NCBI GenBank assembly: GCA_041664585.1
Contig: JBAYKL010000004.1
Coordinates: 19,775-83,774 of the forward strand
Length of the DNA stretch: 64,000 bases
Direction: 5' to 3'
Source of the DNA: Minisyncoccota bacterium
Lineage (GTDB): Bacteria > Patescibacteriota > Minisyncoccia > Phycocordibacterales > GWA1-40-21
The position numbers and the translations under genes are program-made. The notes under the pieces are model-generated. The model ran no database searches. It was not told the origin of the DNA and saw only the letters and a list, made by a program, of their open reading frames with translations. Numbering within the stretch: the first letter of the stretch is position 1; the number at the start of each line of letters is the position of its first letter. Below are positions 1,789-55,036 of the stretch, one piece after another.

Positions 1789-1790
1789 AT

Positions 1791-2389: not shown

Positions 2390-2449
2390 GTATCCACGAG
2401 ATATACACAGCTTATGCACAAAAGTAAATTTTAATAAAAACTATCCACA
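2390..2449. promoter_or_regulatory. DnaA-box cluster upstream of dnaA: gTATCCACg at 2390-2398 and cTATCCACA at 2441-2449.
   Basis: 8/9 and 7/9 matches to TTATCCACA in the rpmH-dnaA intergenic region. Confidence 0.5.
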
Positions 2450-2473
2450 ATTTATAATAAGGTAAACAAAAAC

Positions 2474-3805: not shown

Positions 3806-4023
3806 TTGTTTATAAGTTATTGATAACAAGTATGTAAGGTTGTTTATAAGAAATTGATAACTTTTAAGTAAAAATTATACACTTTGATACAACCAGCTAA
3901 TAAACAAAATAGGAAAGAAAATATTATAAAAATATGTTCATAAATAAAGACGAAAAAAGTTTTAAACAAGTAAACAGATATAATAATAAGTAAGGTATTT
4001 TATTAATTAAAAGAAACAAGAAT
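3806..4023. promoter_or_regulatory. AT-rich dnaA-dnaN intergenic region, a putative oriC/DUE. It carries two direct repeats, TTGTTTATAAG(TT/AA)ATTGATAAC, at 3806-3827 and 3840-3861.
   Basis: 218-bp, >80% AT spacer with a 22-bp direct repeat containing TTATCAAT-like degenerate DnaA boxes on the complementary strand. Confidence 0.45.
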
Positions 4024-5124
4024 ATGAAAATAGAATGTGTTAAAGATAAATTACATATAGCGGTGTCTAAAGCAGAGAAGATTGCTAGTAAAAATATTTC
4101 TCTACCAGTTCTTTCATGTTTATTGTTTGAAACAAGAAAAAATATTTTAGTTATCAGATCTACTAATCTTGATTTGGGTTTAGAAATATCTATTCCGGTA
4201 AAAGTTGAGGAAGAGGGAAGGGTTGCTGTTCCGGCTCAAGTTATAAGCAGTTTTTTGAACAATCTATCGGATGATAAAAATATTAAGCTAGAAACCATCG
4301 ATAATATCCTTAAGGTGTATTCTTCAAATAGCGAAGCTAATATTAAAACTCTCCCCGTAGATGATTTTCCTACAGTACCTATGATAGATGAAGGTAAGGT
4401 TTGCAAGATAAATATAAAAGATTTAGTTGGTGGTATAAAGTCTGTCATCTATAGTGCTTCAACTTCTTCTGTAAAACCAGAGCTTGCTAGCGTATATATG
4501 TATTCAGAGGATGATAATTTTGTTTTTGTTGCTACAGATTCGTTTAGACTCGCAGAAAAGAAAATTAAAAACAGAAAGCCTATAGATATAAATGGTATTC
4601 TCATCCCTTTCAAAAATGCAGCCGATATCTTAAAGATCGTCGATGGTAATGATGGAGAAATAGAAATAAATTGTACAAAAAATCAGATATCTTTTAGTTT
4701 TGATGGTATATATCTTGTTTCTAGAGTTATTGACGGAGTATTTCCTGATTACAAACAGATTTTACCAAAAGAAACAAAAACTAGTATTGTTGTTTTGAAA
4801 CAAGATTTAGTGAACGCACTAAAGCTATCAAATATCTTTTCTGACACGTTTAATCAAATGAATATTTTAGTTTCAGTAGAGAATAAAACTCTTACCGTAA
4901 AAACAAAGAATTCAAATATTGGTGAAAATGTAAATAAAATAGATTCAACTATAGAAGGGGAGAGTATAGACGTTAATTTTAATTATAAGTACATAGTTGA
5001 TTGTTTGCCATTAATTTCATCAGATAGTATTTCTCTTTCTTTTGCTGGTTTGAATAAGCCTATGGTTATAAAAGGAGTATCTGATAAGAGCTTCACATAT
5101 CTTGTGATGCCTATGAATAGGTAA
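4024..5124 (+). CDS. dnaN: DNA polymerase III beta sliding clamp.
   Basis: 366 aa, three-domain clamp architecture, immediately downstream of dnaA. Confidence 0.9.
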   Translation: MKIECVKDKLHIAVSKAEKIASKNISLPVLSCLLFETRKNILVIRSTNLDLGLEISIPVKVEEEGRVAVPAQVISSFLNNLSDDKNIKLETIDNILKVYSSNSEANIKTLPVDDFPTVPMIDEGKVCKINIKDLVGGIKSVIYSASTSSVKPELASVYMYSEDDNFVFVATDSFRLAEKKIKNRKPIDINGILIPFKNAADILKIVDGNDGEIEINCTKNQISFSFDGIYLVSRVIDGVFPDYKQILPKETKTSIVVLKQDLVNALKLSNIFSDTFNQMNILVSVENKTLTVKTKNSNIGENVNKIDSTIEGESIDVNFNYKYIVDCLPLISSDSISLSFAGLNKPMVIKGVSDKSFTYLVMPMNR

Positions 5125-5132
5125 AAATAATT

Positions 5133-5759
5133 ATGAATAAAAAAGAAATTTGGGATAACATTTCTAAACAGGTTGATAATCTAACTGATGCTTTGGGTAT
5201 GTCAGTTGATGAAAAAATTAAACCAGTTGTTATCTCCCTTAATGCTTTAGGTATATGTACGTCATCTTCTTGCGGAGGACATTTTGATGATGGGCGCTTT
5301 CTTTTTCCTGGTATCATTTGCGAAGCGTTTAATAAGCCAGAATACCGATGGACAGGGGAAGGGGAGATTATAGAATCAATTTTCGATAAATATAAAATTG
5401 AGCCGAGACAGAAAAACATGATTTTTTGGCCAGGGAATGAGGCTGCAGAAAATGAATATTATGAAAGGACGAGAAACGTTTTGGAAACATTAGAGTATTT
5501 TGAATGGGATAGGGGAAACTATTTTATTGCGAAAAAAGCATTCGAAATTATTAAAGCTTTTAACGAACAAGGTACACATCCTGAAGATATCAAGATCTCA
5601 TATGGAGGTATGTATCCAGGATGCTCGATAGACATAGCCGGAGATGATCTAATGTTGAAAACCCTGACCGAAGATATTCTAAAAGGAAAAATTATAAAAG
5701 CTCAAAAGGAGATGGATGCTTTTGGTGCTTTTCTGAAAGACACATTTTTTAATAACTAA
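5133..5759 (+). CDS. Hypothetical protein (208 aa) with a CTSSSCGGH cysteine pair. It occupies the slot where recF is normally found.
   Basis: Intact ORF, no Walker motif, no recognisable family. Confidence 0.4.
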   Translation: MNKKEIWDNISKQVDNLTDALGMSVDEKIKPVVISLNALGICTSSSCGGHFDDGRFLFPGIICEAFNKPEYRWTGEGEIIESIFDKYKIEPRQKNMIFWPGNEAAENEYYERTRNVLETLEYFEWDRGNYFIAKKAFEIIKAFNEQGTHPEDIKISYGGMYPGCSIDIAGDDLMLKTLTEDILKGKIIKAQKEMDAFGAFLKDTFFNN

Positions 5760-13407: not shown

Positions 13408-15108
13408 CTAGATTTTTATTTCAAGATCTATAACTCTACCAAGTTCATCGAATGTGCTTATACCTCTGAGGATTTTTAATACACCATCTTGCTTCATATC
13501 TAGAATATTTTGAGATCTCGATGCTTGTTTTACACTTTCTTCGCTTGGGTTGTTTGTGATAGCTTCCCCTACATCTTTTGTGGCAAGAACAGCTTCACAT
13601 ATAGCGACTCTACCTTTATATCCTGTGCCGTTACATTTATCACAACCTTTTGCTTCCCAGACTTTTTCTGACTGTGTTCCTTCCAAATATGTCTTATCAT
13701 CTATAGAAGCAACCGTTTCTTCAATAATTTTCTTCTCTTTTTCATTTGGAGGTCTTTCTTGTTTACAATTCAAACAAAGTTTTCTTATAAGTCTTTGCGC
13801 CATAACTACATTCACTGCGGAGGTAATAATCTGAGGATTTACTGATAGCTCAATGAGTCTTGGGAAAGCACCAACAGCACTGTTTGTGTGTAGGGTAGAG
13901 AATACCAAGTGTCCAGTAAGGGCTGCATTGATAGCAGTACTTGCTGTTTCGCTATCTCTGATTTCTCCAACCATTATCACATCTGGGTCTTGTCTAAGAG
14001 CGGCTCTAAGACCAGCTAAGAATGTATATCCTTTGTCTTCTTCAACTTGTGTCTGCACAACACCATTTAGGTGATATTCGATAGGGTCTTCAATTGTGAG
14101 TATTTTGATATCTTGAGAGTTTATTTTCTTCATGAATGCATACAGAGTAGTTGTTTTACCAGATCCAGTAGGACCAGTTATGAGGAGCATCCCGTTTGGT
14201 TTTTGAATTTGTTCCAATAGGATCGCTAGTGTTCTTGGTTCTATGCCCAAACTCTCTAATGGCACAGAAATTGATTTTGGATTCAAAAGTCTCATAACAA
14301 TGGATTCATTGTACGCGCCAGGAAGCACAGAGGTTCTTATTTGTATTTCACTATCTTGTATTTTTACAGCGAATCTTCCGTCTTGCGCTTCTGATTTTAT
14401 GTTTAACTTAAGACCAGAAAGTAATTTTATTCTAGAAAGGATTAAGGAATATGTAGGGAGATCGAATTTAATTATGTCTATAAGAACACCATCAAGTCTG
14501 AATCTCATTCTGACTTCTGTTTCTTCTGGCTCAATGTGAATATCGGAAGCCCCAAGAGCTAGAGACCCAGCAAGCATAATCTCCATTATCTTAGAAATTC
14601 TGTAAGCTTGTTTTATTCCGTTTAATTCTCCTGTAAGTCTTATAACATCCTGAACAACCTTTATTTGGTTTGTGAGTTCTACAACATGTTCATTAGAGAT
14701 ATCAAAGCTTCCAGCTTTGCTTTCAGATGCATATGACAAATCTTTATATCTGGACCAAGCTTTCTCTAAACTCTTTCTTGAAACCATGTGCATGGTAGGG
14801 AAGTAGCCATCTTCATCTAACTGCTTGATTATGGCCAAAGTCTTCTCGTTCTTAGGAGAGAGAACTGCAACTTGTACTCTTTTTGCAACAGCATCAAATA
14901 TGGCGAGATTGCCTAATTTAGCATTTTCTTCGTTTATTATTCTCAGTGCATCGGAGTTAATGGGTACTGGTCCAAGGTCTAAATAGTTTAATCCATACCT
15001 ATCAGCCAGAAGTTTTGCAACATCCTCCTCTTCTACTTTGCGCATTTCTTCCATGCGTTTGTTTTGTTTTTCTTCATCAAAGACTACCATATGACAATAT
15101 GATAACAT
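13408..15108 (-). CDS. pilB: Type IV pilus / T2SS assembly ATPase (PilB/GspE family), paralog 1.
   Basis: 566 aa; GspII_E N-terminal domain; Walker A GPTGSGKTTT; Asp and His boxes; tetracysteine motif CLNC...CDKCNGTG. Confidence 0.85.
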   Translation of the reverse strand: MLSYCHMVVFDEEKQNKRMEEMRKVEEEDVAKLLADRYGLNYLDLGPVPINSDALRIINEENAKLGNLAIFDAVAKRVQVAVLSPKNEKTLAIIKQLDEDGYFPTMHMVSRKSLEKAWSRYKDLSYASESKAGSFDISNEHVVELTNQIKVVQDVIRLTGELNGIKQAYRISKIMEIMLAGSLALGASDIHIEPEETEVRMRFRLDGVLIDIIKFDLPTYSLILSRIKLLSGLKLNIKSEAQDGRFAVKIQDSEIQIRTSVLPGAYNESIVMRLLNPKSISVPLESLGIEPRTLAILLEQIQKPNGMLLITGPTGSGKTTTLYAFMKKINSQDIKILTIEDPIEYHLNGVVQTQVEEDKGYTFLAGLRAALRQDPDVIMVGEIRDSETASTAINAALTGHLVFSTLHTNSAVGAFPRLIELSVNPQIITSAVNVVMAQRLIRKLCLNCKQERPPNEKEKKIIEETVASIDDKTYLEGTQSEKVWEAKGCDKCNGTGYKGRVAICEAVLATKDVGEAITNNPSEESVKQASRSQNILDMKQDGVLKILRGISTFDELGRVIDLEIKI

Positions 15109-16656: not shown

Positions 16657-18891
16657 ATGAAATTCAAACAATTTCTAATTTCTGCTGGTATTGTTCTAAT
16701 ATCCATTTTTGTCATTGTCGGTATTGTTTCTGCCACTCACAATCTATATTCTTCCAAACAAACATCAGAATCTACTTTCCACTCTCTAAATGATATATAC
16801 AATCTAATAATGTCAGGAACAGAGAAGGCAACTCCCGATAGCCTAACCTCCACATCTGTTTCTCCCACAGCAACCACCTCACATTCCATAGGAGAGATCT
16901 ACACCATATTAGCTAATATAAAGGTAAACAAAGCTACTTCTACATACAGCTCACTTACTCCAACATCTGCACCAGGAGGTACAGGTTATACCCTAGAAGA
17001 CATATGGAATTTAATAAACAACTCTACATATGCTGCAGAAGGTAATCATGATATTACAAAAGCAACTACTCCTTCTGCTTCTATGCATACTACCTCAGAC
17101 ATATATACATATTTAAATGATACATTTAAGGTAAATCTTGCATTGAATAAGGTAAGAAGTGGAGCATACTATTTTGGTAACTCAAACCCTGGTACCTTTG
17201 TCATAGCTAATCTCGGTGAATACTGTGAGGCTAATGATGAGTGTAATACAAACTACTGTGGGGATGATAGTTGGTATGGCTGGCAGACTGGGACTACGCA
17301 ATGTACTACAGGGGAAATCGGATCAGTTTGTAATAATGCGAATCAGTGTTCTACAAATATTTGTGGTTATGGGCAATGTTCTGATGGTGCTGTGGGGAGG
17401 GGGTGTGATAGTGATAGTCAGTGTACATTAGGGCATTGTGATACAGCGGTTACAGGTTCTTGCACAGATGGAAATATTGGTTCAGATTGTGACTCTAATG
17501 CAGATTGTTCTACAGGATTATATTGTGGGGATACACAATGGATGTATAGTTCACCAGCGTGTACCGACGGTTCCGCAGGTCAATACTGTGGAGGACCAGA
17601 TTCATGTGCTCCAGGGAATTATTGTAATTATAATGATTATACTTGTACTGCTACTGATGGGGAAATAGGGTCAGGGTGTGGACAGAATTCTGATTGCGGC
17701 TCTGGATATTGTGATCAGTATAATAGTTATACTTGTACTAACGGAGGAGTTGGAGTTGGTTGCAGTGCTGGTAATCAATGCTCCTCAGGGTATTGTAATA
17801 CTGATTTCAATGAATGTTCTACCGGACAAATAGGTGCACCTTGTGGAGCGACTGGAGACTGTATATCTACTTACTGTGGATATGATTTCAGTCAAGCTTC
17901 TTCTTTCTGTACTAACGGAGGTATTGGAGAAGGTTGTAGTTATAATGCAGCTTGTGTTTCTGGATATTGTGACGTCTTTAATTCCCAATGTTCTGATGGA
18001 AGTATAGGGTCTGGGTGTACGAATAATAATCAGTGCTCTTCAAACCTATGTAGTTCTGTGGTCAATGAATGTATTAGTGGAGATATTGGTTCTTCTTGTA
18101 CTGTTGGGCAGGAATGCGATTCAACCTATTGTGATACCTTTAATGGTATATGTAAGACTGATGGGGCTATTGGAAGTGCCTGCGGATTACATTCTGAATG
18201 TGATTCTGAATTCTGCTCAAGTAATGTTTGTACTGCAGCAACTCTAACATCTAGACTTTCCGCCTATTGGAATTTTAATGAAACTTCTGGAACAGCAGCT
18301 AGCGATTCTTCTGGGAATGGAAAGGTTGGAGTTCTTGTAAGCGGCGTATTAGTAAATCAAACTGGTAAGTTGGGGACAGGTTTCAGATTTGATGGGACAA
18401 ATGACGTCGTCACAGTAAACAACATTGACATTAAAGATTCCTCATTTACATTTTCTGTCTGGGTTGCGAATACAAAGGCTGGTAATAGCTCTCCATTTTC
18501 TATGGGCTCTTCTGGCACCACGAATGGTTATCTATGGATAAGAAAAGTTACTACTACTAATAAAGTGGGATTTGGTTTCCATAATTATGGAACTTATGTA
18601 AATAGTAATAATAGTATGAGTACTAATGGTACTTGGGAGCACTGGGTCTTTGTGTATAAGCTTGGAGTAGGTAAAAAAATATATAAGAACGGTGTTCTTG
18701 ATATAACTGATTCTAATACACAAGCATTCAAATACCCAAGTGGGCAATTAAGAATAGGACATTCTTTTGATGCTGGACAATATCTTGGTGGAACAATGGA
18801 CGAAATCGGATTATGGAACCGCGCACTTACTGCAGACGAAGTCACTCAACTCTATAATGGAGGTGCTGGACTTGGTTACTCATCTTTCTAA
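16657..18891 (+). CDS. Large secreted surface protein, paralog 1. Domain order: signal peptide, three S/T-rich approx 40-aa repeats, about 11 tandem 4-Cys repeats (C-x-DG-x-IGS-x-C...C-S-G-x-C), C-terminal LamG/ConA-like lectin domain.
   Basis: 744 aa; repeat periodicity read from the translation; LamG_3-like motifs (LSAYWNFNETSG...GLWNRALTADEV). Confidence 0.7.
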   Translation: MKFKQFLISAGIVLISIFVIVGIVSATHNLYSSKQTSESTFHSLNDIYNLIMSGTEKATPDSLTSTSVSPTATTSHSIGEIYTILANIKVNKATSTYSSLTPTSAPGGTGYTLEDIWNLINNSTYAAEGNHDITKATTPSASMHTTSDIYTYLNDTFKVNLALNKVRSGAYYFGNSNPGTFVIANLGEYCEANDECNTNYCGDDSWYGWQTGTTQCTTGEIGSVCNNANQCSTNICGYGQCSDGAVGRGCDSDSQCTLGHCDTAVTGSCTDGNIGSDCDSNADCSTGLYCGDTQWMYSSPACTDGSAGQYCGGPDSCAPGNYCNYNDYTCTATDGEIGSGCGQNSDCGSGYCDQYNSYTCTNGGVGVGCSAGNQCSSGYCNTDFNECSTGQIGAPCGATGDCISTYCGYDFSQASSFCTNGGIGEGCSYNAACVSGYCDVFNSQCSDGSIGSGCTNNNQCSSNLCSSVVNECISGDIGSSCTVGQECDSTYCDTFNGICKTDGAIGSACGLHSECDSEFCSSNVCTAATLTSRLSAYWNFNETSGTAASDSSGNGKVGVLVSGVLVNQTGKLGTGFRFDGTNDVVTVNNIDIKDSSFTFSVWVANTKAGNSSPFSMGSSGTTNGYLWIRKVTTTNKVGFGFHNYGTYVNSNNSMSTNGTWEHWVFVYKLGVGKKIYKNGVLDITDSNTQAFKYPSGQLRIGHSFDAGQYLGGTMDEIGLWNRALTADEVTQLYNGGAGLGYSSF

Positions 18892-24553: not shown

Positions 24554-27500
24554 ATGAAATTAAGATCAAAATTAATTTTAATATCTCTTGTTTCGTTGTC
24601 TTTTTGTTTTGTTTCTTCTGTTTTTGCTGCCGGTTGTGGAAAGGAATATTCATCAGAAGGGGATTACTATTATCAGTGTGATGGAACTCAGGTTACACAA
24701 ACGGCTGTTGTAATGTTCGGAGATATTATAGATAATTTTACGAATTCATCGACTACGGCTTCTTGGAGGTTTTATGATGGTGTAAACAAAAGAGAAGCTT
24801 TTTATACAACGGTTTTACCGCCGTTAAACGTTAGTTTAGTCATCTCCTCTAGTAGAACCGACTATGATATATTTACCGCTGCTGGCTCGCCCACATTTCC
24901 TGTAAACATTACTTTAACTATTGCTTCTGGAACGGTGGTATCTTCTACTAGAAGTGATAGGGGAGCAATTTATGGTAGTCAAAATCTACCAGCGGGATCT
25001 ATTGTTTCTATAATAAATAACGGAGCTATTATTGGAAGAGGAGGAGACGGAGGTGGAGCTGCTGGTCCAAATTGGCTTACAAATGGTGTTGGTTCACAAA
25101 ACGGTGGATCTGCTATTTCGTTAGTTGCTAATTCTAGTATTGTCACAAATAATGGGAAAATTTATGGCGGAGGAGGCGGAGGTGGCTATTGTCCTAAGGG
25201 AGGTCCAATTGGTGTGTATTATCCTGGTGATCCTGTTTATGTTTGGGGAGGTGCTGGAGGCGGAGCAGGAGGTAGCTCTGGTGGTCACGGATCATGCGGT
25301 TATGCACAAGGTGGTACTTCTGGAATAAACGGTACTCCAGGTAATGGTATTACGTGTAGCGGTAAGGGTGGCGGTGCCGGAGGTTCTTATGGTTCTCCTG
25401 GGGTTGTAGCTACTTGTACGGCCGGTCAAGATTACTGGATGGGCCCAGCTGCCGGAGGTAACTCTATATTAACTAGTAATTTTGATTTATGTATTGATGG
25501 AAACTCTTCTAGTACTGTAAAAGGGGATATTAGTAGTGCTTATAATGTAAGTTGTCCTTTTACTAAAGCACCGCTTCCTACCGTTACAATTTCAGCTACT
25601 CCTAACCCAGTAGTTTATGGTAACTCTAGCGTCGTAACATGGTCTTCGACAAACACTGTGTCGTGCTCTGCGGTGGATGGATGGGCTACCTCTAGCTCAA
25701 TAAGCGGATCTGCAAATATTAATATCTTGAGATTGAATAAAAGTTTTACGATATCTTGTGTAACAAATAATGGAACTATTACTTATGCAACTACTACGGT
25801 ACAGGTAAGCCCCGCTCCACCTACGTCCCAGAGGATGATAAATTCTGGTCTTATCGGATACTGGCCCTTTGATGAAGCGTCTGGATCAAAAGCAGTAGAT
25901 TATTCTGTTAATGGTAATGATGGAAATATTCTCAATGGGGTTTCAATAAATCAGCCTGGTAAAATTGGAAGAGCTTATGGTTTTGATGGTGTTGATGATA
26001 TTGTTAACCTTGGCAATTTTGATTCATATCTTGTTGGTAAAGAAAATTTATCTTTTTCTGCTTGGATAAAAGGAGATACTTTTAATACTAATAAAACTAT
26101 TTTATCAAACACACTTGATGGTGCTGCACAGTTAGAATTTTATATTAACCCAACAAGTATATCTTTTTGTGACTATACCAATGGGGTGCCAAATGGTTGG
26201 TGTCCAGGTGTTTTTAATCAAAGTCTTAGTTTAAGTAGTTGGCATCTTCTAGTTGCTGTATTTCGTCCTGGCACGGTTGAACTTTTTGTTGATGGTGTGT
26301 CTGTCGGTAGTAAATCTGTATCTGGTGCAACAGCGAGACAGTCTGGTTCAAATGCCAAGAATCTTATAATTGGTGGGAGGTCTGTTGCTAGTTATATGAA
26401 TAAGTGGGACGGCATGATAGATGAGGTGGCTATTTGGGATAGGCCTCTTTCAAGCCAGGATGTTTTTGATTTGTATAATGGTGGTCAAGGTATGAGCTTA
26501 ATCAATTCTTGTCCTTCTGGGGAAGAATATATTTATACTGGTAGCTATGATGTTCCACCTTCAACATATGATATTCCTGATACTATGAATTGTGGATGTG
26601 GAGATGATTCAAATTCTTGTGGTTGTGGTGATTCTTACTCTTGCCCATGTGGTGATTCAAATAGTTGCCCTTGCGGGGATGATTCAATGTCTTGTGAGTG
26701 TGGAGACGATTCTTATTCTTGCAGTTGTGGAGATTATGGATGTGAAATCTGGGAAGGTTCATATGATTGTGCGTGTGGTAATGAAATTTATCTTCCAGAA
26801 GAATGGGGTTATTGTTGTGAAGACTTGGTGCCAGACACAATGTCTTGTGAGTGTGGGGACGATTCTTATTCTTGTGGATATTGGGGAGACGAGCCTTGCG
26901 GCGATGATTCCTATTCTTGTGCCTGTGGCGATGAATACTGGGAGCCATACGAATGTTTATGTAGTATGGAATATTATGAGCCTGATACTATGGATTGTTA
27001 TTGTGGAGATCAGGAGGTTTGTGTCGTTGATAACAATAATTGTTCTTGTGGAGACTCTTACTCTTGCGCGTGTGGTAACGATTCTAATTCTTGTCCGTGT
27101 GGCGGAGACCTAAATTCTTGTTTTTGTGGAGATGATCCTTACACTTGCGGTTGCGGAGATGAAACGATGTCTTGTCTTTGTGATAACGCTTATAGTACAT
27201 ATGTTCCAGGATGGACTGAATACACTGGACGTTGTGTCCCGACAGATACTTTAGAAACCTTTATTGTGTCCCCAAGTGAAGTTCTTCCTGACAATAAATT
27301 TAATTTAAGTTATCGTACAAGCAACTTCAACCCTGGGGATACTTGCGTTGCTTCTGGTGGTTATGGTTGGTCTGGAACCCTCAATACAAATCCGACTATA
27401 CAGATAGAGGTTGGACCAATACCGACAAGCAAGACTTTTAATTTGATTTGTACTAGGGCCTCAGATAGCAAAACCGCTTCCGATTCAAAAACTATTAATC

Positions 27501-27847
27501 TAATTACACAACAACCAAATCATCTTACTTATACGGAAGAGGATGGTGTGGTGTGTAGTGTTGAGCAAGCAGGTAGAAATGGAAAGATATATGTAAACAA
27601 AAATACCATTTGGACATTAAATTCCCCAGTGGATTTATTAAACTATTCTATATCTACAGAATGGTTTGGTGATGGTATTAATACAATAACGAACTCTACG
27701 AGTACGTCTAAAATTTATACAACCGTTGGTCTTAAAAAAATAGCAGCCACTACAACTGCGACTAAGATTGGAGGAACCACCTACTATCTTATTTGTTCTA
27801 CCTCTACAAATGTTATTTTAGGTAACGATCTTATAAAGGAGATTTAG
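24554..27847 (+). CDS. Giant secreted surface protein (1097 aa). Domain order: signal peptide, Gly-rich low-complexity region, LamG/ConA-like domain, array of Cys-rich C-x-C-G-D-(D/S)-S-x-S mini-repeats, Ig-like C-terminal region.
   Basis: Signal peptide MKLRSKLILISLVSLSFCFVSSVFA; LamG motifs (GYWPFDEASG...AIWDRPLSSQDV) shared with the 16657 and 35864 proteins. Confidence 0.7.
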   Translation: MKLRSKLILISLVSLSFCFVSSVFAAGCGKEYSSEGDYYYQCDGTQVTQTAVVMFGDIIDNFTNSSTTASWRFYDGVNKREAFYTTVLPPLNVSLVISSSRTDYDIFTAAGSPTFPVNITLTIASGTVVSSTRSDRGAIYGSQNLPAGSIVSIINNGAIIGRGGDGGGAAGPNWLTNGVGSQNGGSAISLVANSSIVTNNGKIYGGGGGGGYCPKGGPIGVYYPGDPVYVWGGAGGGAGGSSGGHGSCGYAQGGTSGINGTPGNGITCSGKGGGAGGSYGSPGVVATCTAGQDYWMGPAAGGNSILTSNFDLCIDGNSSSTVKGDISSAYNVSCPFTKAPLPTVTISATPNPVVYGNSSVVTWSSTNTVSCSAVDGWATSSSISGSANINILRLNKSFTISCVTNNGTITYATTTVQVSPAPPTSQRMINSGLIGYWPFDEASGSKAVDYSVNGNDGNILNGVSINQPGKIGRAYGFDGVDDIVNLGNFDSYLVGKENLSFSAWIKGDTFNTNKTILSNTLDGAAQLEFYINPTSISFCDYTNGVPNGWCPGVFNQSLSLSSWHLLVAVFRPGTVELFVDGVSVGSKSVSGATARQSGSNAKNLIIGGRSVASYMNKWDGMIDEVAIWDRPLSSQDVFDLYNGGQGMSLINSCPSGEEYIYTGSYDVPPSTYDIPDTMNCGCGDDSNSCGCGDSYSCPCGDSNSCPCGDDSMSCECGDDSYSCSCGDYGCEIWEGSYDCACGNEIYLPEEWGYCCEDLVPDTMSCECGDDSYSCGYWGDEPCGDDSYSCACGDEYWEPYECLCSMEYYEPDTMDCYCGDQEVCVVDNNNCSCGDSYSCACGNDSNSCPCGGDLNSCFCGDDPYTCGCGDETMSCLCDNAYSTYVPGWTEYTGRCVPTDTLETFIVSPSEVLPDNKFNLSYRTSNFNPGDTCVASGGYGWSGTLNTNPTIQIEVGPIPTSKTFNLICTRASDSKTASDSKTINLITQQPNHLTYTEEDGVVCSVEQAGRNGKIYVNKNTIWTLNSPVDLLNYSISTEWFGDGINTITNSTSTSKIYTTVGLKKIAATTTATKIGGTTYYLICSTSTNVILGNDLIKEI
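26583..27180 (+). repeat. Imperfect tandem DNA repeats with a 24/27-bp period (TGYnnnTGYGGnGAYkmnwmyTCT) encoding about 20 CxCGDDSxS units. They include a nested ~35-bp duplicate (26687-26722 and 26837-26876).
   Basis: Periodicity visible in both the nucleotide sequence and the translation. Confidence 0.7.
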
Positions 27848-27948: not shown

Positions 27949-29730
27949 ATGCAACTTGATAATAAACAAATCAAAGAATTTATTATAGATGCGGGGCTTG
28001 TGAGCCGAACAGAATATGATGAAATGGAAAAAGAGGCAGATGCTTTAGTCCATGGTTCTGGTCAATTCAACAAAAAGGATACAGTAGAAAAGCTCCTTGT
28101 TAGCAAGGGAAAGATTTCAGAGGATGATTTACGCAGAGCCCAAGCATATGTTTACGGTATTCCATTTGTAGATCTAAAAGGGCAGAAGATAGATTTTATG
28201 GTTCTTTCTCTTATACCAGAACCTATTGCTAGAAAAAACAATATTGTTGCATTTAGAAGAAATATTGATTCTCTTGAGGTTGCAATGTTAGATACAGATG
28301 ATCTTGCTTCAATTGAATTTATAAAGAAGAAAGTTGGGCTAAAGATTTCACCTCGTCTTACTGACACCGACTCTATTAAGAGTGCAATTCTACAATATCA
28401 AAAAAGTCTAAAAGCTGAATTTGGTGACTTAATACAAAAAGATGTTGCCGCTTTAAAGACTACTGACACGTCTGTGGTGGCGGGTGATTCTCCAAATGAC
28501 TCTCTCAAAAAACTTGCAGAAGATTTACCCGTTGTTCGTATTGTAGATACTCTTCTTAAACATGCTGTATTACAGAATGCTTCTGATATTCATATGGAAT
28601 GTATGGAGAATGAAATGCTTGTGAGATATAGGATTGATGGACTTTTGCATGATGCAATGATTCTTCCAAAAAATGCTTCAATGAGTATTACGGCTAGAAT
28701 AAAAGTTCTTGCTAGCTTAAAGCTGGATGAAAAGAGATTGCCACAAGATGGTAGATTCAAAATCGATGTAAATGGTGAGCCAGTTTCTTTCAGGGTCTCA
28801 ATTATTCCTACATATTTTGGAGAGAAAACGGTTATGAGGCTTTTGAGAGAGGGAGGCGGGGGCTACACTCTTGAGTCTATGGGTTTCCATGGAGAAACAT
28901 TAGAGAGAATATATGAAGCTACAAAACAGGCAAATGGCATGATCCTTACGACTGGTCCTACTGGATCTGGTAAAACAACAACCTTGTATTCCATACTAGA
29001 AATCCTCAATACTCCAGATGTAAATATTTCTACTATCGAAGACCCTATCGAATATCAAATGCCTAGAGTAAATCAAACCCAAGTAAAACCAGAGATTGGT
29101 TTTACATTCGCTAATGGTTTAAGATCTTTAGTTAGGCAAGATCCAGATATCATAATGGTTGGAGAAATCAGAGACACCGAAACGGCATCTCTTGCTGTAA
29201 ATGCAGCTCTTACTGGACACTTGGTTCTTTCAACTTTACACACCAATAGCGCTGCTGGTGCAGTACCTAGGCTTATAGATATGAAGATAGAGCCTTTTCT
29301 ACTTGTTTCTACAATAAATATAATAATGGCGCAAAGACTTGTAAGAAGACTAGGAAAAGTAAAGGAAAAATATTTGCTTTCTAAAACAGAACTTCAGGAA
29401 CTATCTAAAGTAGTAGATATGAATAGAGTCTTAGAATTTTTAAAAGCAGAAAAAGTTGTTGGAGAAAAGGATGATTGGAGTAAAATTCATTTCTATAAAC
29501 CAAAAGAATCAGAGGATGCAAAAGATGGTTTCTCTGGCAGAGTCGGAATACATGAAGCGCTTAGGATGACGGGGACTATAAAAGACTCGATTATGAAAGG
29601 AGCTACATCAGACGAAATAGACGCACAAGCTAAAAAAGAAGGCATGATCTCAATGTTTGAAGACGGTGTCTTCAAAGCTGCTTCTGGACTTACCACTCTT
29701 GAGGAAGTTTTGAGAGTGGTTTCTGAGTAA
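27949..29730 (+). CDS. pilB: Type IV pilus assembly ATPase PilB/GspE, paralog 2.
   Basis: 593 aa; Walker A GPTGSGKTTTLY; Asp/His boxes; upstream of pilC. Confidence 0.85.
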   Translation: MQLDNKQIKEFIIDAGLVSRTEYDEMEKEADALVHGSGQFNKKDTVEKLLVSKGKISEDDLRRAQAYVYGIPFVDLKGQKIDFMVLSLIPEPIARKNNIVAFRRNIDSLEVAMLDTDDLASIEFIKKKVGLKISPRLTDTDSIKSAILQYQKSLKAEFGDLIQKDVAALKTTDTSVVAGDSPNDSLKKLAEDLPVVRIVDTLLKHAVLQNASDIHMECMENEMLVRYRIDGLLHDAMILPKNASMSITARIKVLASLKLDEKRLPQDGRFKIDVNGEPVSFRVSIIPTYFGEKTVMRLLREGGGGYTLESMGFHGETLERIYEATKQANGMILTTGPTGSGKTTTLYSILEILNTPDVNISTIEDPIEYQMPRVNQTQVKPEIGFTFANGLRSLVRQDPDIIMVGEIRDTETASLAVNAALTGHLVLSTLHTNSAAGAVPRLIDMKIEPFLLVSTINIIMAQRLVRRLGKVKEKYLLSKTELQELSKVVDMNRVLEFLKAEKVVGEKDDWSKIHFYKPKESEDAKDGFSGRVGIHEALRMTGTIKDSIMKGATSDEIDAQAKKEGMISMFEDGVFKAASGLTTLEEVLRVVSE

Positions 29731-35824: not shown

Positions 35825-35863
35825 GCATTGCTCCCATCTCTTCAGTACGCTATAATATCCCTA

Positions 35864-38005
35864 ATGACCAAGAAACTAACAACTCTTTCTATACTTTTAG
35901 TTACTCTAGTCTTAATAACCGGAATCACAGCTGCTACTCATGTTCTTATACCAAATAAACAAACTTCAGAATCTACCTTTCACTCCCTAAACGATATCTA
36001 CAATCTAATAATGTCAGGTACAACAAAAGATGTACCAAACTCTCCTGTATTTACAACAAATACTCCCACAGCAACCACCTCACACTCCATAGGAGAGATC
36101 TACACCATATTAGCTAATATAAAAGTAGACAAAGCTTCAAGCACTACAGGTTCACTTATTCCAACTGCTTCTGCATCAACAGACTACACTTTAGAAGATA
36201 TATGGAATTTAATAAATAACGGTACATATGCTACCAAAGGAGCACACCTCAGAGCTACTACTTCTAGTCCCGTTCCTACTATGCATACCACTTCAGAGAT
36301 CTATGACCACTTAAACACAACATTCAGAAACAATCTTTCATTAAGTAAAGTCAGAAGTGGCGCATACTATTTCGGGAACTCAAATCCTGGTACTTTTGTT
36401 ATGGCTAATCTTGATGAATACTGCGATGCTAATGATGAGTGTTCGACTGGGTGGTGTGGGGATGATAGTTGGTATGGCTGGCAGACTGGGACTACACAAT
36501 GTACTACAGGAGAAATCGGATCAGTTTGTAATAACGTAAATCAATGTTCTACAGGGTACTGTGGTTACGGACGATGTACCGATGGCTCTATAGGTAGTAT
36601 GTGTGATTCAAACAGTCAGTGCTCGACAGGGTTCTGTGATGTAAATGTCACTAGTACTTGTACTGATGGAAGTATAGGTTCAGGTTGTGGTTCCAACGCC
36701 GACTGCGCTACAGGATTGTATTGTGGAGACGTATACGGAAATTATGGTTACCCAACATGTACTGATGGTTCTGTAGGCCAATATTGTGGGCCAGATTCAT
36801 GTGCCCCAGGTAATTATTGTAACTATAACGATTATACTTGCGCTGCTACTGATGGAAACTTAGGTTCAAGCTGTGGACGACAATCCGATTGCGATGCTGG
36901 GTTGTATTGTAGTGAAGTAAGTTATACATGTACTGATGGCTCTGTTGGCGCAGCTTGTTACCAGGGTAATCAATGCTCTTCAGGGTATTGTAATACTGAC
37001 TTTAGTGAATGTACTACTGGTGCACTAGGAGATGCTTGTGGAGCTAATGGAGATTGTATCTCTGCTTATTGTGGATATGACGGAGTACAGAGTTTCTGTA
37101 CTGACGGAAGTATTGGTTCAGATTGTAATACTAATATTGCTTGCTCATCAAACCTTTGTAGTACAGTAACTGGCCAATGTATTAGTGGTGAGGTTGGTTC
37201 TACTTGTACTGTATCTCAAGAATGTACTTCTACTTATTGTGATACTTCAATTGGTGAGTGTAAGTTGAACGGAGAAGATGGGACTTCTTGTGGAGGAGCT
37301 TCTGAGTGTGACTCATATCTCTGCTCAAGTAATATTTGTACCATATATCCTTTGTTAGATTTTCTTGTAGCTTATTATCCTCTAGACGAGATATATAATA
37401 CTAACAAGACCCGCGATTTGTACGAAAGCTCATTAGATGGAACATTATATGGTAATACTTCAGTGTATAGTCCTGGTAAGGTTAATGGAGCGTTTACGTT
37501 TGATGGTAACGGAGATTACATAAATGTCCCAGGCGCTCAATTCAATTTAGATGATCAATTTACGATCTCTCTTTGGTACAATTCTTCAAAAGATACAACC
37601 GCTGCAAATACTTGGACTGGTATTGCTAGTAAGGGCGGTTACAGTAATAGCTGGAGACTTTTGGATCTCGGCAAACATTTCCAGTTACAATTGACCTTTG
37701 GTACAGACACAACTCCATCCAGAACAATTAATTCTCCATCTTGGACGATTGGTACCTGGCATCATTTGGTGGTTACTTATGATAGGTCTAATATTTACAC
37801 ATATTTTGATGGGGCTCTTGTTGGTAGTCCAATAGCAGAAACAAGGACTTTAAAAACTAGCGTCCAGTCTTTGCAAATTGGTTTTGCTCAATTCTCTAAC
37901 AAAGGAAACATAGATGAATTTGCTATATGGAAACGTGCACTTACCGTAAACGAAGTTGCCCAGCTTTATAATAATGGTAATGGCATGAGTATTATTACTC
38001 CATAG
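35864..38005 (+). CDS. Large secreted surface protein, paralog 2 of the 16657 gene (same S/T repeats, 4-Cys repeats and LamG domain). An alternative TTG start is at 35828.
   Basis: Long identical peptide stretches with paralog 1 (TSESTFHSLNDIYNLIMSGT, CGDDSWYGWQTGTTQCTTGEIGSVCNN); promoter TTGCTC-17-TATAAT at 35828-35856 lies 7 nt before ATG 35864. Confidence 0.7.
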   Translation: MTKKLTTLSILLVTLVLITGITAATHVLIPNKQTSESTFHSLNDIYNLIMSGTTKDVPNSPVFTTNTPTATTSHSIGEIYTILANIKVDKASSTTGSLIPTASASTDYTLEDIWNLINNGTYATKGAHLRATTSSPVPTMHTTSEIYDHLNTTFRNNLSLSKVRSGAYYFGNSNPGTFVMANLDEYCDANDECSTGWCGDDSWYGWQTGTTQCTTGEIGSVCNNVNQCSTGYCGYGRCTDGSIGSMCDSNSQCSTGFCDVNVTSTCTDGSIGSGCGSNADCATGLYCGDVYGNYGYPTCTDGSVGQYCGPDSCAPGNYCNYNDYTCAATDGNLGSSCGRQSDCDAGLYCSEVSYTCTDGSVGAACYQGNQCSSGYCNTDFSECTTGALGDACGANGDCISAYCGYDGVQSFCTDGSIGSDCNTNIACSSNLCSTVTGQCISGEVGSTCTVSQECTSTYCDTSIGECKLNGEDGTSCGGASECDSYLCSSNICTIYPLLDFLVAYYPLDEIYNTNKTRDLYESSLDGTLYGNTSVYSPGKVNGAFTFDGNGDYINVPGAQFNLDDQFTISLWYNSSKDTTAANTWTGIASKGGYSNSWRLLDLGKHFQLQLTFGTDTTPSRTINSPSWTIGTWHHLVVTYDRSNIYTYFDGALVGSPIAETRTLKTSVQSLQIGFAQFSNKGNIDEFAIWKRALTVNEVAQLYNNGNGMSIITP

Positions 38006-51495: not shown

Positions 51496-51527
51496 TAAAA
51501 ACCCGGTTCAGGTTAACCGGGTTTTTC
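51496..51527. terminator. Hairpin aacccggtt-caggttaa-ccgggtt with A5/T5 flanks (bidirectional).
   Basis: Read directly. Confidence 0.75.
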
Positions 51528-51586: not shown

Positions 51587-54500
51587 ATGGATACACCAAA
51601 AAAGAGTAAAAATGCTGAAAAAGAAGAAGAATTATTAAAATTTTGGCAGGAGAATAAAATTTTTGAAAAGACTTTAACAAAAGATTCACCAAAAGGTGAG
51701 TACGTCTTTTACGATGGACCTCCTTTTGCTACTGGTATACCCCATTTTGGTCACATTCTCGCTGGGACAATGAAAGATTTTGTGGGGAGGTATAAAACAA
51801 TGAGAGGATATCATGTTCCAAGAAAATGGGGATGGGATTGTCATGGCTTACCGGTAGAAAATATTGTTCAAGATGAGATGGGTTTGAAATCAAAAAAAGA
51901 TATCGAAGATTTTGGTTTAGAAAAATTCAATGATACCGCTAGAAGTAAAGTTTTTACATACGCAGATGTTTGGAAAAAGGTTGTTCCAAGAATGGGACGT
52001 TTTGTAGATATGGAAGATGACTACAAGACATTGAATCCAAGTTACTCAGAAAGTGTTTGGTGGGCCTTCAAAAAATTACAGGATAAAGGATTAATCTATG
52101 AAGGTTTCAAATCAATGCATCTTTGTCCGCATTGTGGGACAACCCTTTCAAACTTTGAGGTAGGGCAGGGGTATAAAGATATCACTGATATTTCAGTCAC
52201 AGCTAAATTTGAATTGGTGGATGAGCTAGGTACTTTTTTCCTTGCATGGACGACAACCCCGTGGACTCTTCCTGGTAACGTTGCTTTGGCTATAAATGCT
52301 GAAATTGATTATGTGAAAATAAAAGTGGGAGAAGAGAAATTTATCCTTGCTGAATCAAGACTGTCTGCGATAAAAGAATCTTATGAAATCTTAGAGAAAT
52401 TCAGTGGAGAAAAAATAGTCGGTAAATCATACAAACCACTTTTTGATTATTACAATAATGAAAAACTTATAAACAAAGAGAATGGCTTTAAGGTTTGTTC
52501 TGCTGGCTTTGTAACTACTGAAGATGGTACTGGTATTGTACATATCGCTCCAGCTTTTGGAGAAGATGATATGAATCTTGGAAAAGAAAAGAAACTTCCT
52601 TTTATCCAACATGTAAATATGGCGGGAGAATTTACTCCTGAAGTTATAGATTTCGTAGGACAAAAAGTAAAACCAAAAGATGATCACCAAAAAGCAGATA
52701 TTGATGTTATTAAATTCTTAGCCGGCAAAAACTCCTTATATGCAAAAGAAAAATTTACTCACTCATATCCTCACTGTTGGAGATGTGATACACCACTTCT
52801 AAATTACGCGACAAGTTCTTGGTTTGTTGAGGTTACAAAAATTAAGAATGAGCTTATAGAAGCAAATAATAAAATTGGTTGGATACCAAAAGAAATAGGA
52901 GAGGGAAGATTTGGTAAATGGCTTGAAAATGTTCGTGACTGGTCTATTTCTCGTTCTAGATTCTGGGGTGCTCCTTTGCCTGTATGGAGATGTGGAAAAT
53001 GTAAGGATAATCATTTTATTGGTTCAATAGAAGATATCAAAAAACAAACAACAAGAAACAACAAATTCTTGGTTGTTCGCCATGGTGAAGCAGAGAGCAA
53101 CGTTTTGGGCATTTTAAGTTCAAATCCAAAAGTAAATCACTCTCTTACACAAAATGGTAAAGACCAAGCCGTAGAGGCAGGAGAAAAACTTAAGGATTCA
53201 AAAGTAGATGTTATTTATTGTTCACCTTTTGTAAGGACAAAAGAAACAGCAGAGCTTATCGCAAAACAAATTGGATATCCTGTAGAAAAAATAGTTTTTG
53301 ACGAAAGGCTTCATGAAATATATGTAGGTGTTCTTGATGGTAAGCCGGATGCAGAATATCAAGCGTTCTTTGAGTCAAGAGGAGCCAAATTCTGGAAGAC
53401 TCCAGAGGGAGGGGAGAATTATACTACTGTAAAAAACAGAATGACTGATTTCCTTTATGACATAAATTCGAAAAATGAAGGCAAAAATATTTTAATCGTT
53501 TCTCATAACACCCCAATCTGGCTTATGTTCGGCGGTGCCTCTGGTATGACACCAGAACAACTTATGGACATGAGAGAGAATGGTAAACCTTTTATTTACA
53601 ATTCAGAAATAAAGGAGTTAGAGTTTGCACCAATTCCGCATAATAGAAATTATGAATTAGATTTACACAGACCATTTATTGATGAGCTTATTCTCCCATG
53701 CAAGTGCGGAGGAGAAAAGGAGCGTATCCCAGAAGTTTTTGATTGTTGGTTTGAATCTGGATCCATGCCTTTTGCTCAGTCTCATTATCCATTTGAGAAT
53801 TTAGATAAATTTAATCCAGAAAAAGGTATTGGTTTCCCAGCAGACTTTATTGCTGAAGGAGTAGATCAAACTAGAGGATGGTTCTATTCTATGCTTGTGC
53901 TTTCTGTTGCTTTGTTCGGGCAGTCTTCATATAAAAATGTTGTTGTTAACGGAATTGTTCTTGCCGAAGATGGGCAGAAGATGGCCAAGAGATTGAAAAA
54001 TTACACAGATCCGATGGAATTGGCAGATAAATTTAGTGCAGATGCAATGAGATATTACTTATTGTCTTCAAGTGTTATGAAAGCAGAAGATTTGAAATTC
54101 TCAGATGAAGGAGTTGATGAAGTTGTAAAGAAAGTAATCATGAGACTTCAAAATGTTCATTCTTTCTATGAAATGTATGGTGGTAAAGATTTGAAAGACA
54201 AAGTTGGAATTTCTGAAAATGTTTTGGATAGATGGATTCTTGCTCGTTTGAAAGAGACAGCGACACAGATGACAAAATCTACAGAAAAATATGAGCTTGA
54301 TAGAGCAACTTGGCCTATAGCTGATTTCATTGAAGATCTTTCCGTATGGTATTTAAGAAGATCAAGAGATAGATTTAAATCAGAAAATATTTCTGATAGA
54401 AATTTTGCTATAAATACAACAAAAGAAATTATTCTAAATGTTTCTAAGTTAATCGCACCATCAATGCCATTTTTGGCTGAAGATTTGTACAAGAAAATTG

Positions 54501-55036
54501 GGGGAGAAAAAGAAAGTGTACATTTAGAAACTTGGCCAGAGGAATTTGTAGGAGAACTTACAAAGGAAGAGACAGAGACTATCGAAAATATGAAAGATGT
54601 TAGAAATGCTGTTTCTCTTGGGTTAGAATCTAGAGCAAAATCTGGAATTAAGGTTAGACAACCTTTAGCTAAGATACAAATTCAGAGTGAAAAACTAAAA
54701 GGTAAGCAAGAATATTTGGACTTGGTTAAAGATGAAGTAAATGTGAAAGAAGTAATTACAGATAAAAATATTTCTGAATTAGTAGTACTTGATACAAATA
54801 TTACACCAGATTTAAAAGACGAAGGTGATGTGAGAGATTTGATCAGAAGTATTCAAGAAGAAAGAAAGAACAGAAAACTAAGCCCAAATGATCTGATTGG
54901 ACTTACTGTAGATACTAACAATAGTAGTTTGGTAGAAAAATTTAAAGATGAAATAGTTAGGGTTACTAATGTTAAGGATATTTCATATGGTGAAAATTCT
55001 AATCAAGAAAATATCTTCGTTAAATTCCTAAAATAG
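51587..55036 (+). CDS. ileS: Isoleucyl-tRNA synthetase (type 2-like) carrying an internal approx 200-aa inserted domain.
   Basis: HIGH (PHFGHILAG), KMSKS (KMAKRLKN), CP1 editing region, C-terminal anticodon-binding domain; continuous 1149-aa ORF. Confidence 0.9.
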   Translation: MDTPKKSKNAEKEEELLKFWQENKIFEKTLTKDSPKGEYVFYDGPPFATGIPHFGHILAGTMKDFVGRYKTMRGYHVPRKWGWDCHGLPVENIVQDEMGLKSKKDIEDFGLEKFNDTARSKVFTYADVWKKVVPRMGRFVDMEDDYKTLNPSYSESVWWAFKKLQDKGLIYEGFKSMHLCPHCGTTLSNFEVGQGYKDITDISVTAKFELVDELGTFFLAWTTTPWTLPGNVALAINAEIDYVKIKVGEEKFILAESRLSAIKESYEILEKFSGEKIVGKSYKPLFDYYNNEKLINKENGFKVCSAGFVTTEDGTGIVHIAPAFGEDDMNLGKEKKLPFIQHVNMAGEFTPEVIDFVGQKVKPKDDHQKADIDVIKFLAGKNSLYAKEKFTHSYPHCWRCDTPLLNYATSSWFVEVTKIKNELIEANNKIGWIPKEIGEGRFGKWLENVRDWSISRSRFWGAPLPVWRCGKCKDNHFIGSIEDIKKQTTRNNKFLVVRHGEAESNVLGILSSNPKVNHSLTQNGKDQAVEAGEKLKDSKVDVIYCSPFVRTKETAELIAKQIGYPVEKIVFDERLHEIYVGVLDGKPDAEYQAFFESRGAKFWKTPEGGENYTTVKNRMTDFLYDINSKNEGKNILIVSHNTPIWLMFGGASGMTPEQLMDMRENGKPFIYNSEIKELEFAPIPHNRNYELDLHRPFIDELILPCKCGGEKERIPEVFDCWFESGSMPFAQSHYPFENLDKFNPEKGIGFPADFIAEGVDQTRGWFYSMLVLSVALFGQSSYKNVVVNGIVLAEDGQKMAKRLKNYTDPMELADKFSADAMRYYLLSSSVMKAEDLKFSDEGVDEVVKKVIMRLQNVHSFYEMYGGKDLKDKVGISENVLDRWILARLKETATQMTKSTEKYELDRATWPIADFIEDLSVWYLRRSRDRFKSENISDRNFAINTTKEIILNVSKLIAPSMPFLAEDLYKKIGGEKESVHLETWPEEFVGELTKEETETIENMKDVRNAVSLGLESRAKSGIKVRQPLAKIQIQSEKLKGKQEYLDLVKDEVNVKEVITDKNISELVVLDTNITPDLKDEGDVRDLIRSIQEERKNRKLSPNDLIGLTVDTNNSSLVEKFKDEIVRVTNVKDISYGENSNQENIFVKFLK
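53060..53560 (+). other. Histidine-phosphatase (phosphoglycerate-mutase superfamily) domain inserted in-frame within ileS, between the two halves of the zinc-knuckle (WRCGKC ... PCKCGG).
   Basis: Perfect PGAM phosphohistidine signature [LIVM]-x-RHG-[EQ]-x-x-x-N (LVVRHGEAESN at codons ~495-505), SPFVRTKETA and ILIVSHNTPI downstream motifs. The flanking IleRS motifs (ISRSRFWGAPLPVW / EVFDCWFESGSMPF) are normally about 55 aa apart but are about 255 aa apart here. Confidence 0.6.

Follow-up and report, generated by a model that had tools for sequence, protein, structure and literature searches.

The 64,000-nucleotide stretch of DNA analysed here (the window; Minisyncoccota bacterium, assembly GCA_041664585.1, contig JBAYKL010000004.1, positions 19,775 to 83,774 of the forward strand) carries an ileS gene whose product is an isoleucyl-tRNA synthetase (IleRS) with a complete histidine phosphatase nested within it. 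The phosphatase sits at the tip of the zinc-knuckle hairpin of connective peptide 3 (CP3), between the two halves of the Rossmann fold, and its profile match, its catalytic residue set and its α/β fold assign it to branch 1 of the histidine phosphatase superfamily (PF00300). The arrangement is not peculiar to one genome but is a lineage-wide trait of a large Paceibacteria clade comprising hundreds of species, and we regard this in-frame phosphatase-in-IleRS architecture as real beyond reasonable doubt. The original prediction, made from the sequence of the window, had described a phosphoglycerate mutase (PGAM)-like histidine phosphatase at 52990-53710. A complete histidine phosphatase is indeed present, although it resembles the small phosphatases PhoE, PspA and CobC rather than PGAM, and the interval given spans the zinc knuckle from half to half while the phosphatase proper occupies approximately 53060-53602.

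The host protein

The ileS open reading frame (ORF) at 51587..55036 on the forward strand is unbroken, with 1149 codons and a stop, in agreement with the continuous 1149-residue frame predicted earlier. The whole protein scores 867.2 bits against the TIGR00392 ileS equivalog of NCBIfam (cut-off 621.4), and Pfam finds tRNA-synt_1 in two pieces around His_Phos_1, followed by Anticodon_1 and DUF5915. Among solved structures the type-2 enzymes are nearer than those of type 1, with E 1e-229 for the IleRS2 8c8v versus 6e-98 and 3e-90 for the IleRS1 structures 1ffy and 8c9e; the MupA and MupB models give 764 and 752 bits, both under their exception cut-offs. The class I signatures are retained as HFGH (residues 53-56) and KMAKR (residues 798-802). 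The editing motifs of connective peptide 1 (CP1), W221-P229 (WTTTPWT) and G314-D328 (GTGxVHxAP, GTGIVHIAPAFGEDD), are invariant in 60 homologues, as are zinc site 1 (CPHC, CWRC) and zinc site 2 (CGKC, CKC), both of which are intact in the window protein. The protein is a type-2 IleRS of functional appearance, which presumably aminoacylates tRNA-Ile. The serine-to-alanine change in its KMSKS motif (KMAK) recurs in at least 14 of 121 homologues, and in at least six homologues the HIGH motif reads HxGN in place of HxGH. The NCBIfam model for IleRS with an N-acetyltransferase domain (NF040702) is matched at 330.8 bits against a cut-off of 1999 and no GNAT family appears in the Pfam result, nor does Pfam find a kinase domain in the window protein, which therefore lacks the kinase plus 3'-phosphatase combination that defines the Pnkp type.

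Position of the insert

The Pfam match to His_Phos_1 covers residues 495-662 (E 1.1e-36, 126.8 bits against a cut-off of 21.7, profile positions 2-169 of 194) and interrupts the tRNA-synt_1 match of the same protein. Alignment with 8c8v pairs query residues 8-488 with chain residues 9-478 and query residues 675-1109 with chain residues 471-905, so that the segment of about 190 residues in between is a pure insertion. The distance from W467, at which ISRSRFWGAPLPVW finishes, to E716, at which EVFDCWFESGSMPF begins, is 248 residues in place of the approximately 50 of insert-less relatives, close to the 255 against 50-60 originally estimated; measured from SRxRxWG to DxWFxSG it is 271 residues versus 73-81. 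The GC content of the insert (0.34-0.38) is near that of its flanks and of the rest of the gene. The sequence motifs place the insert in the CP3 subdomain and, as the original prediction proposed, between the halves of a split zinc knuckle, the second of the protein, the CGKC of residues 469-472 and the CKC of residues 705-707 bracketing the His_Phos_1 match. In yeast IleRS the region following the linker 453-ARDWNVSRNRYWG-465 has been named CP3 (residues 459-526), and the linker itself forms part of the reveromycin A pocket at the tRNA binding site (PMC7955072). Its counterpart in the window protein is VRDWSISRSRFWG, which puts the phosphatase some 30 residues downstream of a segment lining the tRNA pocket.

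The CP3 motif (V/F)IGSxEELEK of insert-less IleRS flanks the insert twice, as FIGSIEDIKK within 53003-53059 (residues 473-491) and as FIYNSEIKELE at 53579-53625 (residues 665-680), both copies aligning with the same eight residues of 8c8v, and a weak direct repeat in the DNA (18 nt, 78%, spaced 576 nt) surrounds the insert. The duplication could be a trace of the insertion event, that is a target duplication, or a structural requirement. A recent horizontal insertion was considered and rejected, given the absence of a GC anomaly and a flanking repeat that is short and only 78% identical. An intein or homing element was likewise rejected: Pfam finds only His_Phos_1 in the insert, and the junctions …NNKF/LVV… and …FIYN/SEIK… lack the Cys/Ser/Thr and His-Asn boundaries of inteins.

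The phosphatase domain

The sequences LVVRHGEAESN, SPFVRTKETA and ILIVSHNTPI, on which the earlier identification of the domain relied, are all present, together with CGKC and CKC. Across 336 copies of the domain, gathered from homologues and loci, the catalytic residues are nearly without exception (Table 1), and R498, H499, R550, E577 and H640 are invariant even among representatives that are 32-79% identical to one another. In mean pairwise identity the insert (0.61) is on a par with the anticodon-binding domain (0.62) and above the C-terminal domain (0.50), so that selection on it resembles that on the genuine domains of the synthetase. We consider it very probable, on this conservation and on the predicted structure, that the inserted domain is catalytically active.

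The AlphaFold model of the domain alone has a mean predicted local distance difference test (pLDDT) of 93.3, and within the full protein, for which the predicted template-modelling score is 0.64, residues 490-670 reach about 85-95. Searched with Foldseek, the domain model matches PspA (4ij5) and PhoE (1h2e) with probability 1.00 and template-modelling (TM) scores of 0.79-0.80. Scores normalised to the query lie at 0.74-0.80 for PspA 4ij5, PhoE 1h2e, TIGAR, CobC, a riboflavin-pathway phosphatase and GpgP. When normalised to the target they separate the small phosphatases PspA, PhoE, CobC and GpgP (approximately 0.67-0.73) from most phosphoglycerate mutases (approximately 0.56-0.63), with the exceptions of the compact mutase of S. 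pombe (1fzt, 0.70) and the longer phosphatase TIGAR (0.57-0.59). PhoE, PspA and CobC are also the nearest solved sequences to the insert (E ~1e-12). The named equivalogs for such small phosphatases all score below their cut-offs, at 77.6 versus 277 for PRK13463, 73.4 versus 350 for PhserinePhPspA, 74.9 versus 162.9 for ribazole_cobC and 60.1 versus 250 for PRK15004, so that the insert belongs clearly to the family, yet no substrate can be carried over to it. A partial match of 82 bits is obtained with NF005567, the NCBIfam model of an RNase H/acid phosphatase fusion. The isoelectric point is 5.9 for the insert and 6.5 for the family median; the domains are thus not basic.

Distribution in related genomes

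All of the 120 closest database homologues (56-93% identical, 1029-1210 residues) combine PF00300 with IleRS domains. Their contigs are in many cases 100-750 kb long, and those homologues that are named come from metagenome-assembled Paceibacterota or Minisyncoccia. A scan of GTDB, at one genome per species and with two narrow peptide patterns, returned 235 species, and in each of 80 loci inspected the phosphatase occupies the CP3 position within IleRS, the two sharing one unbroken ORF in 75 and a broken one in five, as draft genomes lead one to expect. Organism names in the scan include Paceibacterota, Taylorbacteria, Campbellbacteria, Nomurabacteria and Parcubacteria, the taxonomic extent being judged by the titles of the records, of which some, such as 'uncultured Candidatus Saccharibacteria', are plainly generic. 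Contigs with the same junctions include some of 0.6-0.75 Mb and a closed chromosome of 682 kb. In one locus (L001, Loclat_bin-14315) the insert is 97% identical to that of the window, and the organism is probably of the same or a sister species. The lack of a compositional signature indicates an old insertion, and the sequence comparisons describe one that is clade-wide and under purifying selection.

An exhaustive phmmer search of 1.84 billion representative proteins with the insert gave 124 matches at E <= 1e-30, nearly all of them IleRS or IleRS fragments with around ten free-standing proteins of about 200 residues, and among the best 150 matches every multi-domain protein is an IleRS or a fragment of one. 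This search of the insert revealed no host protein other than IleRS, the ValRS, LeuRS and MetRS of these genomes not having been surveyed directly. The nearest free-standing homologues (P0234, P0235) are encoded on short contigs whose neighbourhood gave nothing informative. In some Paceibacteria (Campbellbacteria) an additional insertion in the N-terminal part of IleRS accompanies the CP3 phosphatase (L045 at 1138-5197, L053 and L063); that of L045 is of about 160 residues and has an HSLGA motif resembling the serine-hydrolase insert of another relative, P0327.

Recurrent insertion sites in other IleRS

Other relatives show that CP3 is one of three sharply defined sites used recurrently in IleRS of the candidate phyla radiation (CPR), in keeping with the suggestion that the zinc-knuckle position tolerates insertions. 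When inserts of at least 80 residues were mapped on the numbering of the window protein, histidine phosphatases were found at CP3, in the α3-β4 loop and at the junction of the stem-contact (SC) fold with the anticodon-binding domain (Table 1). One such protein, P0266, found on six contigs of which one is 1.06 Mb long, has two phosphatase copies, both at sites other than CP3. Its relatives (P0276-P0392; also L083-L085), named Gracilibacteria, Peregrinibacteria or Peribacteria, are 1200-1860 residues long and nearly all contain PF00300. P0281 and P0278 have phosphatases at all three main sites, and P0152 has four copies. Every complete copy possesses the full catalytic set, truncated copies keeping those residues that fall within their span, and copies inside one protein are only 30-36% identical and therefore old. 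About ten relatives have no insert, so the domain is not needed for IleRS function as such.

The same sites are also occupied by GNAT acetyltransferases, a P-loop kinase (AAA_33/AAA_18), a serine hydrolase, DUF559, an IS200-type Y1 domain (Y1_Tnp) and a weak MuF_C-like match. These in-frame domains occupy three or four fixed sites, often in company with one, two or three histidine phosphatases. The best match of the P-loop kinase insert, a weak one, is to seryl-tRNA(Sec) kinase. In P0337, encoded by one unbroken ORF on a contig of 38 kb, His_Phos is replaced by a tandem pair of HAD phosphatases whose DxDG motifs are intact. Directly upstream of this HAD-containing ileS lies a PemK/MazF-type toxin gene (L085, 3536-3928), and further upstream are a PRK-family (PF00485) kinase and a gene resembling a CCA-adding enzyme (PolyA_pol, weak HD match). 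The IleRS ORF of P0195 (L084, 6001-9201), with Y1_Tnp, His_Phos and GNAT inserts, halts right after GNAT, and in the 0.5 kb left on the contig no downstream frame resumes the β4, KMSKS and anticodon-binding part; the gene may be split, a pseudogene or misassembled.

Table 1. Features of the ileS gene of the window and sites of insertion in related IleRS (residues in the numbering of the window protein).
Feature	Residues	Nucleotides	Strand	Basis or conservation
ileS, type-2 (eukaryote-like) IleRS with nested phosphatase	1149 in all	51587..55036	+	TIGR00392, 8c8v match
HIGH signature, HFGH	53-56	51743..51754	+	HYGH or HFGH in homologues
CP2-CP3 linker, VRDWSISRSRFWG	449-461	52931..52969	+	yeast equivalent 453-ARDWNVSRNRYWG-465
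Zinc knuckle 2, first half, CGKC	469-472	52991..53002	+	C469 and C472 invariant in 60 homologues
N-side linker, predicted helix 481-488, CP3 motif copy 1 (FIGSIEDIKK)	473-491	53003..53059	+	alignment, model
Histidine phosphatase (His_Phos_1, branch 1); Pfam match 53069-53572	492-672	53060..53602	+	Pfam, AlphaFold, Foldseek
RHG motif within LVVRHGEAESN; R498, nucleophile H499, G500	498-500	53078..53086	+	R in 336/336, H in 335/336 copies
R550, second phosphate-binding Arg (SPFVRT)	550	53234..53236	+	336/336 copies
E577, putative proton donor (RLHEIYVG)	577	53315..53317	+	E in 326, D in 7, of 336 copies
H640, second catalytic His (IVSHNTP)	640	53504..53506	+	336/336 copies
C-side linker and rest of CP3; motif copy 2 (SEIKELE), conserved IleRS segment DLHRPFIDE	673-704	53603..53698	+	alignment
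Zinc knuckle 2, second half, CKC	705-707	53699..53707	+	homologue alignment
KMSKS signature, here KMAKR	798-802	53978..53992	+	KMSK[RSH] in most homologues
Anticodon-binding domain (Anticodon_1)	881-1028	54227..54670	+	Pfam
CP3 insertion site	~486			52 proteins with insert, 46 of them with phosphatase
α3-β4 loop insertion site	~732-748			34 proteins with insert, 19 of them with phosphatase
SC-fold/anticodon-domain junction site	~867			64 proteins with insert, 60 of them with phosphatase
Editing domain insertion site	~220-300			6 proteins with insert, 0 with phosphatase

Possible functions of the nested phosphatase

The domain would be expected to hydrolyse a phosphomonoester through a phospho-histidine intermediate at H499 while remaining tethered to IleRS. 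What has been selected may be the physical and stoichiometric coupling to the synthetase rather than a precise placement, since whole lineages carry the domain only at the residue-867 junction or in the α3-β4 loop, in one to four copies. We give about an even chance to the protein being a bifunctional enzyme that joins IleRS to a tethered phosphomonoesterase of the PhoE/PspA/CobC type, with a small diffusible substrate favoured by the use of several sites, by a surface that is not basic and by resemblance to phosphatases of small molecules; several sites in use argue against a function that requires exact placement beside the active site. The likeliest class of substrate would be a nucleotide, or a phosphometabolite tied to aminoacylation or salvage. 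That the substrate is a small molecule is put forward tentatively, at somewhat below even chances, with a small phosphometabolite or nucleotide slightly preferred over the end of a tRNA bound in the synthetic site. Several points weigh against a tethered small-molecule phosphatase. A generic metabolic phosphatase leaves the constant IleRS host unexplained, while the position of the CP3 site, directly after the linker lining the pocket of the tRNA 3' end, and the P-loop kinase of relatives, with its weak likeness to seryl-tRNA(Sec) kinase, both favour an RNA-directed role; in addition, replacement by HAD phosphatases is confined to P0337, one protein on one contig, a second example of HAD in IleRS having been sought and not found.

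It is conceivable, if unlikely, that the IleRS of CPR bacteria is a platform for accessory enzymes and that the phosphatase has either tRNA-Ile or the synthetase as its target, stripping a blocking 3'-phosphate or pyrophosphate off the CCA end in the first case and reversing an inhibitory phosphorylation in the second. If true, this would amount to a previously unknown hard-wired layer of repair or counter-toxin activity in aminoacylation, recruited independently to three sites. In the first of these forms, which we hold to be doubtful, the domain would serve in end-healing or quality control of tRNA-Ile, freeing its 3' end of a 2'/3'-phosphate or pyrophosphate, for example after damage by a nuclease or toxin, and would be a second hydrolytic satellite of the catalytic core by analogy with the CP1 editing domain. 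Such a role is consistent with an insert in the connective-peptide region right after the CP2-CP3 linker of the 3'-end pocket, with the partial match to NF005567, which indicates that His_Phos does pair with nucleic-acid enzymes, and with the further domains of relatives, namely the AAA_33 or PSTK-like P-loop kinase and, in one of them, the HAD phosphatase, a combination that recalls Pnkp. The pairing of a kinase with a phosphatase is the logic of T4 Pnkp. Against it, in many lineages the domain is absent from CP3 and confined to the SC-fold/anticodon-domain junction or the α3-β4 loop, the domains are neutral to acidic, the window protein has no kinase domain of its own, and we know of no branch-1 histidine phosphatase that acts on RNA ends.

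In another reading the phosphatase would be a built-in countermeasure, reversing an inhibitory phosphorylation of IleRS or detoxifying an inhibitor directed at it. Kinases of the HipA/HipT type phosphorylate the KMSKS loop of other class I synthetases, and the serine of this motif is replaced by alanine here and in some homologues. IleRS is often a target of natural products (PMC10485003, PMC7955072), and the GNAT, P-loop kinase and serine hydrolase domains of relatives are enzyme classes typical of antibiotic modification. We nevertheless judge this explanation improbable, as neither a phosphorylated IleRS inhibitor nor an IleRS-directed kinase toxin is known, PADLOC gave no significant match (a single marginal one, E 3e-4, fell on the kinase segment of a relative), and conservation throughout the clade across deep divergence suits a housekeeping role better than an arms race. 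A component of anti-phage defence was rejected as a candidate for want of a significant PADLOC match.

The domain might instead be a passenger, functionless or unrelated to IleRS, that came to rest in a permissive loop of an essential gene, perhaps by a mobile insertion. CPR IleRS does accept many unrelated inserts at the same sites, including the nuclease- or transposase-like DUF559 and Y1_Tnp, the CP3 motif of the host is doubled around the insert, and pairwise identities of the synthetase core and the phosphatase, correlated overall (Pearson 0.90), are uncorrelated among distant pairs (Spearman 0.02), a comparison that is uninformative at deep divergence. The near-invariance of the catalytic residues in the 336 copies, conservation equal to that of genuine IleRS domains, recruitment of one family to three sites and only in IleRS, and the absence of a compositional anomaly, of an intein or homing-endonuclease domain (Pfam) and of intein-type junction residues make this, too, a poor prospect.

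Still less probable is that the insert represents the glycolytic cofactor-dependent phosphoglycerate mutase (dPGM) of the organism, fused into IleRS. Mutases are recognized by HGN after the second histidine, by substrate-binding Arg/Lys residues and by a C-terminal tail. The best NCBIfam match of the insert is to the short archaeal-type dPGM model and PGAM-type structures are among its fold matches, but that score falls far below the cut-off (NF038349, 93.7 bits versus 225), as do those for PRK01295 (42.8 versus 316), PRK01112 (42.7 versus 320) and GpmB (48.4 versus 261). Moreover SHNTP and not HGN follows the second histidine, the mutase-specific insertions and C-terminal tail are missing from a domain of about 180 residues that ends some 30 residues past H640, and the fold is generally nearer to the small phosphatases. 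An assembly chimera or an overlooked frameshift can be dismissed, since numerous independent projects have yielded the same junctions, in 120 protein clusters and 80 species loci.

Significance

In line with the original suggestion that the architecture was undescribed, no account of a phosphatase within any aminoacyl-tRNA synthetase emerged from full-text searches of the literature. Relatives bear automatic composite names such as the JGI 'isoleucyl-tRNA synthetase/phosphohistidine phosphatase SixA/...', and the phenomenon appears to be one whose proteins are already in databases without being discussed in the searchable literature. Aminoacyl-tRNA synthetases are among the most conserved of enzymes, the domains they acquire generally bring new functions, for instance in editing, complex assembly or signalling, and a second catalytic domain nested in the catalytic body of a bacterial synthetase, besides CP1, is rare. 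In the present case IleRS has retained a phosphatase whose active site is intact across hundreds of ultra-small, host-dependent species, and in sister lineages the family occupies three sites of the enzyme, no other host protein having been found. This pattern points to an unrecognised link between the charging of isoleucine and a dephosphorylation step, and discovery of the substrate could uncover an unknown step in how organisms of minimal metabolism handle tRNA or nucleotides, or defend their translation. The insertion sites furthermore offer a natural map of the loops at which class I synthetases accept whole domains, which is of use for enzyme engineering.

Other features of the window

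The remaining genes of the window, among them those for ArgRS, RecO, a class II synthetase, a penicillin-binding protein, Pol I, type IV pilus ATPases and laminin-G surface proteins, fit a CPR bacterium. Between the argS stop (51096) and the ileS start (51587), the segment 51100-51586 (forward strand) has a GC content of 0.42-0.45 compared with approximately 0.33 around it; TTGACA occurs at ~51108 and a clean hairpin followed by a T-run, aaaacccggttcaggttaaccgggttttt, ends the gap at ~51499-51527. The gap matches no Rfam family at gathering score and contains neither a tRNA nor a tmRNA, its RNA fold z-score is -2.46, and a 479-nt match of 70% identity lies upstream of ileS in L001 (2682-3148). 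It may encode an unannotated structured RNA of about 380 nt. Laminin_G_3 is present in three large ORFs, 16657-18891 (744 residues), 24554-27847 (1097 residues) and 35828-38005 (725 residues), one of which has a weak match to a phage tail-fibre Gp38-like family; these proteins probably serve an episymbiont at its surface or in adhesion. Pilus ATPases of the T2SSE family are encoded twice, at 13408-15108 and 27949-29730.

Comparison with known systems

The synthetase as a whole is collinear with the IleRS2 of Priestia megaterium (8c8v, E 1e-229) and the IleRS of Thermus thermophilus (1ile, E 1e-215), with which it shares the HIGH and KMSKS-type signatures, the CP1 editing motifs, two Cys4 zinc sites and the C-terminal DUF5915 region; it differs from 8c8v in the approximately 190 additional residues of the phosphatase, placed between residues 478 and 479 of that protein, and in the reading KMAKR of the KMSKS motif. 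A precedent for IleRS with an embedded small catalytic domain is the NF040702 type ('isoleucine--tRNA ligase, N-acetyltransferase domain-containing'); the window protein has no GNAT, although GNAT inserts accompany the phosphatase in CPR relatives. The insert has the fold of PhoE/YhfR (1ebb, 1h2e), PspA (4ij5) and CobC (6nru), with TM scores of 0.76-0.80, and has in common with them the catalytic Arg-His-Arg-Glu-His set and a compact size free of mutase-specific additions, but it is only 24-26% identical to these proteins and is nested in another enzyme where they are free-standing. Covalent union of His_Phos_1 with a second enzyme is also seen in the RNase H/acid phosphatase fusion (NF005567) and in PFK-2/FBPase-2, which in contrast to the window protein are joined end-to-end and have other partner enzymes. 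The nearest functional analogy may be the CP1 editing domain of class Ia synthetases, which is likewise hydrolytic and nested in a connective-peptide region between the Rossmann halves, and from which the insert differs in its unrelated fold, in a chemistry that would be directed at phosphomonoesters rather than aminoacyl esters, in its location in CP3 rather than CP1, and in being lineage-specific.

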